A stretch of 11,642 nucleotides of DNA from a virus. The first letter of the stretch is position 1. Each line of letters starts with the position of its first letter. Positions 5,130 through 11,642 of the stretch are shown in pieces. Both the position numbers and the translations under genes were made by a program. The stretch lies in UHGV virus genome UHGV-0294613. One strand, written 5' to 3'. The notes under the pieces are model-generated. The model had not been told where the DNA came from. It ran no database searches and saw nothing but the letters and a program-made list of their open reading frames with translations.

Positions 5130-6071
5130 TCACCCCCTGAATCCTGCCGGGATCTGGCTGTAGTCCACGTTGTCGTAACTGGCTTTGAAGTACGGGTCTT
5201 CACGTTTTTCTGTGTGCGTGCTGACGGACGGCGATAAGCGCAGGGAAAGCTCATCCCATTTTTCCCGCAACTTCGACGGGCTGAGCACGTTACGGCACCA
5301 GAACGGATCGCGGCTGACGCGGCTGTACATCTCGCAGATTTGTTTGTGAGTACGACCATCCTGCACACACATCAGGCGAATTTCGTTTGCCCATGCTGTC
5401 CAGTTCGGTTCTTTGGGACGAACCACCTCGCCGTCACATTCGGCGGCCTGCTCGTACAGGGCAATGATTTTTTTCCAGAGCCACTGTGCGCAGGTCAAAT
5501 CATCCTGCGTTCCCCACTGGCGCTTTTTAGGGCTGAATACAACCGCATCAGGATGGCGAGTTAAAAAATCCTGTTCAGCCGTCTGCGTGTCCGGTTGCGA
5601 AGCGTCCGGACGAGAAGGTTTTTTATCTGACGGATCATGTTTTGATTTTACTGACGGATCCCCGCCAGATTCTGACGGGTGAAAACCCGCTTTTTTGCCA
5701 GATTTCGACGCATCAAATTTTGACGGGTCAGATTTTGATACGTCAGATTTTGACGGGTCAGAATCTGACAGTTGAGAAAATGCCGCTGCCTGAAGCTTCG
5801 CAACGTTAAGCTGATAAACATTCGACGCATTGCGGTTACCCTGGCGACGCGCCTTACGCGTTAACCAGCCTTCTGCTTCCAGCCGTGCGATAGCCGTTCT
5901 GACGGTACTCATCCCCGCGCCAATCTGGCGGGCAATGGTTTCAATTGATGGCCAGCACACACCTTCGTCATTACTGAAATCAGCCAAGCGGGCCATAATT
6001 GCCACGCTGGATAATTTCATGCCTGACGCTGCGCAACCATCCCATACATAGCCGGTTAATTTAGTGCTCAT
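5130..6071 (-). CDS. Replication initiator (lambda O-like), 313 aa, with internal iterons
   Basis: N-terminal winged-helix-like region (SSVAIMARLADFSNDEGVCWPSIETIARQIGAGMSTVRTAIARLEAEGWL), a low-complexity repeat segment (DPSKSDVSKSDPSKFDASKS) encoded by DNA iterons, and a separate C-terminal domain. Gene order cro - CII-position gene - this gene matches lambdoid replication modules. Confidence 0.7.
   Translation of the reverse strand: MSTKLTGYVWDGCAASGMKLSSVAIMARLADFSNDEGVCWPSIETIARQIGAGMSTVRTAIARLEAEGWLTRKARRQGNRNASNVYQLNVAKLQAAAFSQLSDSDPSKSDVSKSDPSKFDASKSGKKAGFHPSESGGDPSVKSKHDPSDKKPSRPDASQPDTQTAEQDFLTRHPDAVVFSPKKRQWGTQDDLTCAQWLWKKIIALYEQAAECDGEVVRPKEPNWTAWANEIRLMCVQDGRTHKQICEMYSRVSRDPFWCRNVLSPSKLREKWDELSLRLSPSVSTHTEKREDPYFKASYDNVDYSQIPAGFRG
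5624..5773. repeat. Origin-type iteron array inside the initiator gene
   Basis: About eight copies of a ~15-bp unit with core TGACGG(A/G)TCA (e.g. GATTTTGACGGGTCA, GATTTTGATACGTCA, GAATCTGACAGTTGA), the last four in strict 15-bp tandem at 5714-5773. Confidence 0.75.
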
Positions 6072-7301: not shown

Positions 7302-7976
7302 ATGAAAACAATCCATGACATCCGGCGGTCTAACGCCAGAAAACTGAGAGATGGTGTTGGCGGGAATTCTTCCTTTGCCACTATGATTGATCGCGAGCCA
7401 ACCCAGACCAGCAGGTTTATGGGAGATGGTGCTACTAAAAATATCGGTGACAGCATGGCACGACACATCGAAAAATGTTTCGACCTGCCTGTCGGATGGC
7501 TCGATCAAGAACACCAGACAACGAACATCACAAAAAAACCTGATGTTTCAATCACTAATAAACAAATCACATTAGTCCCTGTCATATCATGGGTACAGGC
7601 CGGAGCATGGAAAGAAGTTGGATATTCTGAGGTTGATTTGAGCACAGCAGAAACGTATCCCTGCCCTGTACCCTGTGGGGAAATGACTTATATCTTGCGG
7701 GTGATAGGTGATTCAATGATTGATGAGTACCGCCCGGGAGACATGATTTTTGTCGATCCTGAAGTACCTGCCTGCCACGGTGACGACGTTATTGCATTGA
7801 TGCACGATACAGGTGAAACCACCTTCAAAAGGTTGATAGAAGATGGGACACAGCGTTATCTCAAAGCGTTAAACCCAAACTGGCCTGAGCCTTACATTAA
7901 GATCAACGGTAATTGCTCTATAATTGGTACAGTGATTTTCTCAGGAAAACCAAGAAGATACAAAATCAAAGCCTAA
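7302..7976 (+). CDS. cI: CI-type prophage repressor (N-terminal HTH plus C-terminal LexA-like S24 autopeptidase), 224 aa
   Basis: C-terminal domain carries the GDSM serine motif and a downstream KRL lysine; an Ala-Gly pair (VQAG/AW) is a candidate RecA-stimulated cleavage site. Divergent from cro across palindromic operators. Confidence 0.85.
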   Translation: MKTIHDIRRSNARKLRDGVGGNSSFATMIDREPTQTSRFMGDGATKNIGDSMARHIEKCFDLPVGWLDQEHQTTNITKKPDVSITNKQITLVPVISWVQAGAWKEVGYSEVDLSTAETYPCPVPCGEMTYILRVIGDSMIDEYRPGDMIFVDPEVPACHGDDVIALMHDTGETTFKRLIEDGTQRYLKALNPNWPEPYIKINGNCSIIGTVIFSGKPRRYKIKA

Positions 7977-8887: not shown

Positions 8888-9107
8888 TAGGTCCACCTCG
8901 CCTGATGTGGCTAAAAGCAGGCACATAACAGCTAAGTATTTTCAACCAGAGAGAATCCTTAGCGTTGTGGTGAATGCGGCTCAGCGCACGCGGGTTAAGG
9001 TTGAGGCTGACAGTCGACCTTCTGTGGATACCCACCCGCCTGGTGTGCAACCTTCGCCAGGCACCGGGAGGCACCCGGCACCACAACTTTATGCTGTGTG
9101 TAGTCTT

Positions 9108-9154
9108 GGCGGTACCAGCTTGTACCCTTGCTTCCGGCTGGTACCGTCCTTTTT
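9108..9154 (+). terminator. Strong stem-loop with U-tract (plus-strand terminator candidate)
   Basis: 12-bp stem 9108-9119/9137-9148 (CGGTACCAGC pairs GCTGGTACCG, plus G-C and G-U closing pairs), 17-nt loop, then CTTTTT (9149-9154). No U-tract on the minus strand. Confidence 0.5.
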
Positions 9155-9156
9155 AC

Positions 9157-9241
9157 AAAACAGAGAAGAGCATCACCGGACGACGGGCTCATAACCCAAT
9201 CCATCCGGGCGGCTGCCACCGCAGGTGTTCTTCTCTGTTTT
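9157..9241. other. Long-range stem (13 bp perfect, about 18 bp with wobbles) enclosing a 49-nt substructured loop
   Basis: AAAACAGAGAAGA (9157-9169) pairs with TCTTCTCTGTTTT (9229-9241); inner stem CCGGA (9176-9180)/TCCGG (9204-9208). A-tract and T-tract flank the stem as in bidirectional terminators. Lies in a GC-rich stretch with no credible ORF. Confidence 0.45.
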
Positions 9242-9367
9242 GTGGAGAAACTAACCGCCCCTACGGGGGCATTTATGGAAATGTAATTGACTCAATAATC
9301 GCCGGACGGTGAGGGCTTCCTTTTACCGGAATTCAGCGCGGTGCAGCGCATATACGTGGAGAACAAA

Positions 9368-9904
9368 ATGTCATTTATTAAAACTTTTTCCGGGAAGCAT
9401 TTTTATTATGACAGGATAAATAAAGACGACATCGTTATTAACGATATCGCGGTTTCCCTTTCAAATATCTGTCGCTTTGCAGGACATCTTTCACACTTCT
9501 ACAGTGTCGCCCAACATGCGGTGCTTTGCAGCCAGCTGGTGCCGCAGGAATTTGCTTTTGAAGCTTTAATGCATGATGCAACAGAAGCATATTGCCAGGA
9601 CATCCCCGCACCACTGAAACGACTTCTTCCTGACTATAAACGGATGGAAGAAAAAATAGACGCCGTAATCCGTGAGAAATACGGGTTACCTCCTGTTATG
9701 AGCACGCCAGTGAAATATGCCGATCTCATTATGCTGGCAACCGAACGCCGCGATCTCGGGCTTGATGATGGCTCTTTCTGGCCTGTGCTGGAAGGTATCC
9801 CGGCAACAGAGATGTTCAACGTGATTCCACTGGCTCCAGGCCATGCCTACGGGATGTTTATGGAACGCTTTAACGAATTATCGGAGTTACGCAAATGCGC
9901 ATGA
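9368..9904 (+). CDS. HD-domain phosphohydrolase (YfbR-like small HD hydrolase), 178 aa
   Basis: His...His-Asp...Asp pattern (GHLSHFYSVAQHAV ... LMHDATEAY ... D). ATG 9368 is preceded by GGAG with a 6-nt spacer; the track's 9341 start is a GTG extension. Confidence 0.7.
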   Translation: MSFIKTFSGKHFYYDRINKDDIVINDIAVSLSNICRFAGHLSHFYSVAQHAVLCSQLVPQEFAFEALMHDATEAYCQDIPAPLKRLLPDYKRMEEKIDAVIREKYGLPPVMSTPVKYADLIMLATERRDLGLDDGSFWPVLEGIPATEMFNVIPLAPGHAYGMFMERFNELSELRKCA

Positions 9905-10137
9905 ATGTTTTCGAAATGGAAGGGTTTCTTCGTGGGAGATGTGTACCGCGAGATCTGAAAGTGAATGAAACGGATGCTGAATACCTGGTGCGTAAATTCG
10001 ATGCGCTTGAAGCTAAATGTGCAGCACAGGAAAACAAAGTAATACCAGTGTCAACTGAACTGCCACCAGCAAATGAAAGTGTTTTGTTATTCGATGCTAA
10101 CGGAGAAGGCTGGCTAATTGGCTGGCGTTCTCTCTGA
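9895..10137 (+). CDS. Small phage protein, 80 aa as an ORF (DUF551-like from memory); the frame stays open 40 codons past its TGA
   Basis: ATG 9895 overlaps the HD stop (ATGCGCATGA). After TGA 10135-10137 the same frame continues YTWGQKETGEWQWTFQVGDLENVNITHWAVMPKAPEAGA and ends in TAATG coupled to the next gene at 10257. Confidence 0.5.
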   Translation: MRMNVFEMEGFLRGRCVPRDLKVNETDAEYLVRKFDALEAKCAAQENKVIPVSTELPPANESVLLFDANGEGWLIGWRSL

Positions 10138-10256
10138 TACACCTGGGGACAAAAAGAAACCGGAGAATGGCAGTGGACATTTCAGGTCGGGGACCTTGAA
10201 AACGTCAATATCACTCACTGGGCAGTAATGCCAAAAGCACCGGAGGCTGGAGCATA

Positions 10257-10562
10257 ATGACCACTTTTACCGACAAAGAACTGATTAAAGAAATTAAAGA
10301 GCGTATCAGCAGCCTTGACGTGCGAGACGATATTGAGCGCCGTGCTTATGAAATCGCACTCCTATCTCTGGAAGTAGAACCAGATGAACGCGAAGCTTAT
10401 GAATTATTCATGGAAAAGCGTTTCGGTGACTTAGTAGATCGTCGGAGAGCAAAAAACGGCGATAACGAATACATGGCATGGGATATGACTCTCGGTTGGA
10501 TCGTCTGGCAGCAACGAGCTGGTATCCATTTTTCAACAATGTCACAACAAGAGGTGAAATAA
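10257..10562 (+). CDS. Hypothetical protein, 101 aa
   Basis: ATG 10257 is preceded by GGAGG; its stop TAA overlaps the xis ATG at 10562. No family recognised. Confidence 0.55.
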   Translation: MTTFTDKELIKEIKERISSLDVRDDIERRAYEIALLSLEVEPDEREAYELFMEKRFGDLVDRRRAKNGDNEYMAWDMTLGWIVWQQRAGIHFSTMSQQEVK

Positions 10563-10912
10563 TGGAGCCATACAGCCTCACACTCGATGAGGCCTGTCAT
10601 TTTCTCAAGATATCCAGACCGACTGCCATTAACTGGATACGCACAGGGCGTCTTCAGGCAACACGCAAAGATCCCACTAAGAATAAATCTCCTTACCTCA
10701 CAACACGACAAGCCTGCATTGCGGCTCTTCAGTCTCCGCTGCATACTGTCCAGGTGAGCGCGGGTGATGGCATAACAGAGGAAAGAAAATGTCACTCTTC
10801 CGCAGAGGTGAAATATGGTACGCCAGTTTCACATTGCCGAACGGTAAAAGATTTAAACAGTCTCTTGGAACAAAGGACAAAAGGCAGGCGACAGGACTCC
10901 ATGACAAGCTAA
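10562..10912 (+). CDS. xis: Excisionase, 116 aa
   Basis: HTH-like [26 protein letters not shown]; sits immediately upstream of int and overlaps it (10789-10912) in another frame. Size and arrangement match P22 Xis from memory. Confidence 0.7.
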
Positions 10913-11642
10913 AGGCTGAAGCATGGCGGGTCAGCAAACTTGGTGAAATACCTGATATAACGTTCGAGGAAGCTTGTGTCAGGTGGCTTGAAGAGAAAGC
11001 ACATAAAAAATCACTGGACGATGACAAAAGCCGGATCGGATTCTGGCTTCAACATTTCGCAGGAATGCAACTAAGAGACATTACTGAATCAAAAATTTAT
11101 TCAGCAATGCAGAAAATGACGAACCGGCGTCATGAGGAAAACTGGAAACTCAGGGCAGAAGCATGCAGAAAAAAAGGGAAACCTGTTCCAGAATACACGC
11201 CAAAACCAGCGTCCGTTGCAACGAAGGCTACGCATCTTTCATTTATAAAGGCCCTACTAAGAGCCGCAGAGCGTGAATGGAAAATGCTGGATAAGGCACC
11301 AATTATTAAAGTGCCTCAACCAAAGAATAAACGGATCCGCTGGCTGGAGCCCCATGAAGCACAAAGGCTGATTGATGAATGTCCGGAGCCATTAAAGTCT
11401 GTTGTTGAATTTGCACTGGCAACAGGCTTAAGACGCTCGAACATCATCAACCTTGAATGGCAACAAATAGATATGCAGCGCCGGGTGGCATGGATAAACC
11501 CGGAAGAGAGTAAATCAAACCGCGCAATTGGCGTTGCGCTGAATGATACTGCATGTCGCGTATTGAAAAAACAAATCGGGAATCATCACCGTTGGGTATT
11601 TGTGTACAAGGAAAGCTGTACCAAACCAGACGGAACGAAAGC
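10789..11642 (+). CDS. int: Tyrosine integrase, P22-type, N-terminal ~284 aa; 3' end truncated by the window
   Basis: Translation [34 protein letters not shown]... matches the P22-family integrase N-terminus as I recall it. RBS GAGGA upstream; the ORF runs off the window end, so the catalytic C-terminus and att site are not visible. Confidence 0.85.

Follow-up and report, generated by a model that had tools for sequence, protein, structure and literature searches.

The open reading frame (ORF) that begins at position 9895 of the DNA analysed here (UHGV virus genome UHGV-0294613, 11,642 nucleotides, hereafter the window) is very probably yfdS, the 120-aa DUF551 accessory gene of a lambdoid prophage related to CPS-53/KpLE1 and located at thrW/proA, in which a recent G-to-A change at position 10137 turns the Trp81 codon from TGG into TGA. 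We conclude that the window allele is a recent, rare loss-of-function nonsense allele and not a recoding signal. The appropriate annotation for the locus is a disrupted yfdS (W81*), not a gene of 80 aa with an unexplained gap behind it, and the locus does not belong in a list of recoding candidates.

Gene order and reading frame at the locus

The order yfdR-yfdS-yfdT upstream of the xis/int genes is present at the locus. The features of this region are as follows:

9368..9904, plus strand: yfdR homologue, HD-domain 5'-deoxynucleotidase, 178 aa (from the yfdR annotation in the closest genomes)
9895..10137, plus strand: truncated yfdS ORF, 80 codons and the premature TGA (from the ORF list; phrog_583 positions 1-80)
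10135..10137, plus strand: premature stop at codon 81 (TGA), with a derived A at 10137 where relatives have G (TGG, Trp)
10138..10257, plus strand: severed C-terminal part of yfdS, codons 82-120 and TAA, identical to the tail of intact alleles
10242..10252, plus strand: Shine-Dalgarno-like GGAGG (10242-10246) and GGAG (10249-10252) upstream of the yfdT ATG (read from the sequence)
10257..10562, plus strand: yfdT homologue, 101 aa, whose start overlaps the ancestral yfdS stop in TAATG (phrog_660 match)
10478..10912, plus strand: HTH_17 (excisionase-like) gene (Pfam PF12728, 34.2 bits; helix-turn-helix annotation in relatives)
10834..11642, plus strand: 5' part of a tyrosine integrase gene (coordinates transferred from NZ_CP016404)

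The yfdR homologue gives a weak Pfam match to YfbR-like/HD_3, and the start region of yfdS overlaps the TGA with which this homologue ends (ATGCGCATGA). At the other end of the region, the integrase frame has no stop in 269 codons and is open to the end of the window. The GGAGG and GGAG motifs upstream of yfdT are putative ribosome-binding sites. The 366-nt stretch between yfdR and yfdT is matched in 2588 of 5426 complete Escherichia coli genomes, where the matched 120-aa gene is annotated as "phage protein," "yfdS," or "DUF551 domain-containing protein."

The sequence bears out most of the reading frame described in the first-pass annotation. From the ATG at 9895, an ORF of 80 codons extends to TGA 10135-10137. 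Past this stop, the frame is again uninterrupted through a Trp-rich tail (W84, W92, W94, and W109), and it closes in a TAATG junction where TAA 10255-10257 shares a base with ATG 10257-10259 of the 101-aa ORF. The tail consists, however, of 39 sense codons (codons 82-120, 10138-10254) and not of the 40 that had been counted.

The best-known relative is YfdS of K-12 (YFDS_ECOLI, 120 aa, cryptic prophage CPS-53/KpLE1), which belongs to the same family and is encoded in the same yfdR-yfdS-yfdT order with overlapping stop/start junctions. The two genes are 95.4% identical in DNA over 366 nt and identical in their C-terminal 39 residues, but the K-12 gene is intact, with TGG at codon 81 where the window has TGA. 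The prophages also differ, given that the one in the window lies at thrW/proA and is without yfdP-yfdQ, whereas K-12 CPS-53 adjoins dsdC. Moreover, the closest complete relative of the window prophage is a lambdoid prophage of ~45 kb with a full structural module, unlike K-12 CPS-53.

Codon 81 in intact relatives

The first-pass annotation had left three readings of the open tail standing, namely, a nonsense mutation in a longer gene, readthrough, and chance, and had proposed a comparison with homologues. Codon 81 is a sense codon, TGG, in every intact homologue examined. These are the genes of strain 165, K-12, MFDS1016424, and strain 210221272, together with those in all 120 IMG/VR contigs retrieved and in the 5 species-representative genome contigs that match the flanks. 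The 39-codon tail is open to the same endpoint in 125/125 related contigs, which hold 24 distinct nucleotide alleles, and no homologue that ends at codon 81 and is followed by divergent sequence was found. With TGG in all intact homologues and the same frame running to the same TAATG junction, the comparison picks out the nonsense mutation.

The change itself is isolated. Over the 366-nt stretch, G-to-A at 10137 is the sole difference from strain 165. The alignment with NZ_CP016404 (E. coli strain 210221272, swine) contains 3 mismatches in 11,503 nt (99.97% identity). Besides G10137A, these comprise a synonymous substitution at 5987 and, where xis and int overlap, a missense one at 10895. The window therefore carries a derived, rare allele one step away from the common haplotype of strains 165 and 210221272. 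The tail is nucleotide-identical to that of intact alleles and displays no secondary decay downstream of the stop. Its openness has no other cause than that this part of the ancestral gene is still unchanged, the time since the mutation having been too short for decay.

The domain interrupted by the stop

With Trp81 restored, the protein matches phrog_583 over positions 1-120 of 120 (274.7 bits) and Pfam DUF551 (PF04448) over residues 50-117, the latter with 22.2 bits, barely above the cutoff of 22. The family profile is thus matched by the locus with Trp restored and not by the product as encoded, which covers phrog_583 profile positions 1-80 of 120 and for which the Pfam search returned no DUF551 match. 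The encoded product does not contain a complete DUF551 domain, since the invariant H108-W109, P113, and P116 all lie beyond the stop, and the severed tail encodes the second half of the domain. The interrupted residue belongs to the most conserved block of DUF551, and in an alignment that includes homologues with as little as ~50% identity, W81 is conserved to at least 90%. Profile matches and synteny together mark the locus as a YfdS/DUF551 family member that has been disrupted.

Searches beyond these profiles were uninformative. The PDB sequence search returned only noise at E>0.5, and NCBIfam gave no match for yfdS or yfdT. The AlphaFold2 model, built with 20 homologues, is poor (pLDDT of 58.8 and pTM of 0.35), and its placement of the stop inside the second of four predicted strands is, at this low confidence, a weak hint. 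That the stop would destroy the fold of the domain is argued from sequence conservation and not from structure.

DUF551, which YfdS also contains, has been described as a portable domain (PMC10834534). The same module forms the C-terminal domain of other proteins, such as the Ea22 variant V2 of Stx phages, where it is fused to Ead/Ea22-like N termini; in the window it is split by a stop, unlike in variant V2. To our knowledge, no biochemical function is known for the DUF551 domain.

Stop alleles at codon 81 and at other codons

The TGA allele is rare. A 61-mer centered on the TGA had 0 exact matches in the 2062 complete-genome records of E. coli that contain the segment, and exact-pattern scans for the allele retrieved none from IMG/VR contigs and none from JGI metagenomes. 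The exact 80-aa product was found on 13 contigs versus more than 1000 for the identical full-length protein. DNA was retrieved for ten places with the 80-aa product and revealed TGA in five, TAG in two, and a contig end in three. The five TGA contigs (L005, L006, L008, L009, and L010) come from three Logan runs and one ENA metagenome assembly (SRR22670989, ERR7570119, SRR21919737, and ERZ28659261, the last with two contigs), and the allele is seen with at least three flanking prophage haplotypes. TAG at codon 81 (L004:6241-6243 and L007:6241-6243) was found in GCA_002206765.1 and in Logan run ERR084477, with yfdP-yfdQ present; no complete genome carries this allele, and an exact-pattern scan of IMG/VR contigs found none. 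The TGA is associated with C at 10122 and the TAG with T (haplotypes 10122C and 10122T), and each is a single transition away from a TGG haplotype present in complete genomes. These separate haplotypes indicate at least two independent nonsense events at codon 81.

The three contig ends belong to short contigs from different samples that stop right after the T or TG of codon 81 (L011:4921, L012:2681, and L013:2141). They may mark a branch of the assembly graph at a within-sample G/A polymorphism, an explanation that serves no better than a bias of the exact-product look-up. In L005 (2403-7247), a metagenome contig, the place of yfdT after the TGA form of yfdS is taken by a 206-aa DUF551 protein, a 1275-aa protein with a SIR2_2 domain (defence-like), and a different integrase; the same sample also has the thrW/proA version, L009. 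Two frameshift "alleles" (P0057 and P0051) were considered as signs of recurrent decay and rejected, each coming from a single assembly. One of these assemblies has other fragmented genes and an A5-to-A6 change and probably contains a sequencing error.

As a control, exact look-ups were made for the products expected from stops at ten other transition-mutable codons. Truncation products were found for 10/10 of them, on 2 to 57 contigs each (W73, 9; W77, 12; W84, 57; Q86, 21; W92, 10; Q93, 8; W94, 2; Q97, 5; W109, 33; Q45, 3), counts that are rough in that true stops are mixed with partial products at contig ends. W81, with 13, is in the middle of this range.

The commonest truncation on record is the 83-aa product of W84, a codon (10144-10146) that lies in a Dcm site, CCTGG (10142-10146). 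Deamination of 5-methylcytosine at CCWGG is a classic mutational hotspot, and TGG to TAG is the change expected at W84. The 61-mer of this predicted amber allele (TGG to TAG at 10145) has exact matches in 9 complete genomes, including ET490, ET670, and ET979, which validates the exact-match test that gave zero for the W81 alleles. The W84 amber alleles resemble W81* in being rare single G-to-A changes at a Trp codon inside DUF551 with the downstream frame intact. They differ in the codon affected and in the methylation site, which W84 has and W81 has not. Indeed, the Dcm hotspot was rejected as the cause of the W81 stop, given that the context there is TCTGG and not CCWGG (CTCTGGTA).

Stop alleles thus appear to arise wherever they arise easily and to persist at well under 1%, the pattern of mutation pressure and weak purifying selection seen in a very large sample and not of a specific site. 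These population data, with low-frequency stops at every easily mutable codon, suggest weak constraint on yfdS.

The recurrence at codon 81 could also be read as selected loss or down-tuning of YfdS, with stops at Trp81 favored because the full-length protein is costly, for instance, by interfering with replication initiation together with YfdQ and YfdR. The two independent nonsense changes and the three flanking haplotypes of TGA are compatible with this, as is the inhibition of replication initiation by multicopy yfdQRS or yfdQRT, which needs yfdQ and yfdR plus either yfdS or yfdT (PMC4776307). Such selection is nevertheless improbable. The look-up was conditioned on codon 81, and counts are comparable or higher at W73, W77, W84, Q86, W92, and W109; the presence of the W84 amber in complete genomes is what mutation pressure and weak selection predict; and all nonsense alleles of yfdS are rare, under ~1%. 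Moreover, deletion of yfdS in K-12 is reported to increase sensitivity to H2O2 and thus to be harmful, not beneficial, under this stress (PMC3105296). A broader form of the same idea, in which stops at Trp codons (TGA or TAG at W81, TAG at W84, W109, and others) are a recurrent selected cut of the dosage of a costly YfdS to ~1%, is decidedly unlikely. There, the UGA alleles would be "soft" knock-downs because misreading by tRNA-Trp regenerates the exact wild-type protein.

Readthrough at codon 81

The frame is open to the ancestral stop, the ancestral residue at codon 81 is Trp, and UGA is the leakiest stop codon of E. coli; Trp-tRNA(Trp) infrequently misreads it, and the readthrough measured with K-12 reporter strains was ~2-4% (PMC10570021). 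These properties would suit programmed recoding, with UGA read as selenocysteine or efficiently as Trp and the 120-aa protein as the normal product. Other properties of the site make such recoding very improbable. The stop is not conserved among homologues, relatives having TGG, and no SECIS element or other stimulatory RNA structure was found just 3' of the stop. Rfam gave no match in the whole window at the gathering threshold and none in 9850-10350 even at E<=10, and the 66 nt that begin with the UGA are no more stably folded than their shuffled versions (minimum free energy [MFE] of -11.3 kcal/mol versus a mean of -13.1, z = +0.69). Position +4 is occupied by U, a context linked to the lowest readthrough (PMC5289835). 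The TAG found at codon 81 in another lineage is explained neither by selenocysteine nor by any UGA-specific mechanism, and yfdR, in the same operon, uses a genuine TGA stop. On these grounds, the readthrough alternative of the first-pass annotation was set aside.

The W81 TGA allele is probably still slightly leaky, at a low level, through basal UGA-to-Trp misreading. It shares with this basal process the UGA codon and a Trp insertion that coincides with the ancestral residue, but the U at +4, the lack of downstream structure, and the unconserved stop give no sign of enhancement. A simple terminator scan picked up a hairpin at 10109-10126, just before the stop. It was rejected because it falls within the repeat that codes for GWLIGW, its T-tract is poor, and every intact allele has it.

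Sequencing error and chance

The TGA is a single-base difference from the closest complete genome and is carried by no complete genome, as would be seen if the true base at 10137 were G and the source of the window contained a sequencing or assembly error. This is extremely unlikely, since at least five further contigs, which come from different runs and assemblies, have this TGA as well, and one of them (L006) matches the window at 7747/7748 bases; together, these observations argue against a one-off error.

The openness of the tail taken alone is not significant. The probability of 39 open codons is 0.10 to 0.15 by composition, in line with the ~15% first estimated, and when all six frames of the window are counted, 160 of 943 stops (17%) precede at least 39 open codons. 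Openness alone therefore proves nothing, and the question has to be decided by homology. A genuine 80-codon gene with a coincidentally open tail, for which the 10-17% probability by composition could be invoked, has next to no chance of being correct, as the tail equals, base for base, the coding 3' end of the intact 120-aa genes in relatives, the DUF551 residues with the highest conservation lie in it, and its TAATG endpoint is the same in 125/125 relatives; as far as the homologue comparison goes, this coincidence is already refuted.

Predicted consequences of the stop

The G-to-A change at 10137 converts Trp81 of yfdS from TGG to TGA, and RF2-type termination at codon 81 would then release an 80-residue product without the C-terminal half of DUF551. 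This fragment would retain the helical N-terminal region together with the initial third of DUF551 and is most likely inactive. Misreading of the UGA by Trp-tRNA(Trp) would restore the exact ancestral residue and supply, at most, a trace of wild-type protein, as a basal error and not as a programmed event.

Downstream, the TAATG coupling of yfdT to yfdS would be lost, and yfdT would keep its own predicted ribosome-binding site (GGAGG/GGAG). The 120-nt gap after the stop is G-rich and C-poor, a composition that disfavors Rho loading, and no strong polarity is anticipated. Since yfdP-yfdQ are absent from the prophage in the window, the module was already incomplete, which fits a relaxed constraint on yfdS. 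The allele has little importance beyond annotation and is nothing new in kind. It illustrates cleanly why a prophage frame that continues past a stop is, in most cases, the sign of a very young nonsense allele.

Further observations on the prophage and the DUF551 module

The prophage of NZ_CP016404 adjoins tRNA-Thr and proA. It is a lambdoid prophage of ~45 kb with Q, RusA, CI/Cro-like regulators, and complete head and tail modules, and it carries one IS3 insertion in the lysis region. Positions 1-139 of the window are unmatched in this otherwise 99.97%-identical prophage, which has a DNA methyltransferase gene there instead; this alignment places a mosaic junction at the window's left edge. 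At 10895, the window has G where NZ_CP016404 and L006 have A, which corresponds to N140D in the HTH_17/xis-like protein and to E21G in the integrase.

Upstream of yfdR, yfdP-yfdQ lie between the equivalents of window positions 9268 and 9257 in L004, L007, and L010, whereas the window is without both. The segment at ~8893-9340 is GC-rich; ORFs overlap there on the two strands, and the minus strand has a hairpin resembling a terminator at 9256-9271. A frameshifted hypothetical gene is annotated at ~8967-9286 in the closest genomes.

The C-terminal module from approximately NKVIPVS to PEAGA (window ~10030-10254) is nearly identical across unrelated N termini, which include Ead/Ea22-like PF13935 forms of 154-206 aa and also 192-aa forms, and up to 4 copies are present in some genomes. 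By these comparisons, the DUF551 module appears to behave as a portable, recombining domain.

Finally, several 89-aa database proteins (P0054, P0059, P0055, and P0061) have in-frame 31-codon deletions within yfdS (window 9997-10098, codons 35-68). The deletions join two "FDA" motifs (residues 35-37 and 66-68) and occur on window-type and K-12-type backgrounds alike, a distribution that suggests recurrent deletion between short direct repeats.
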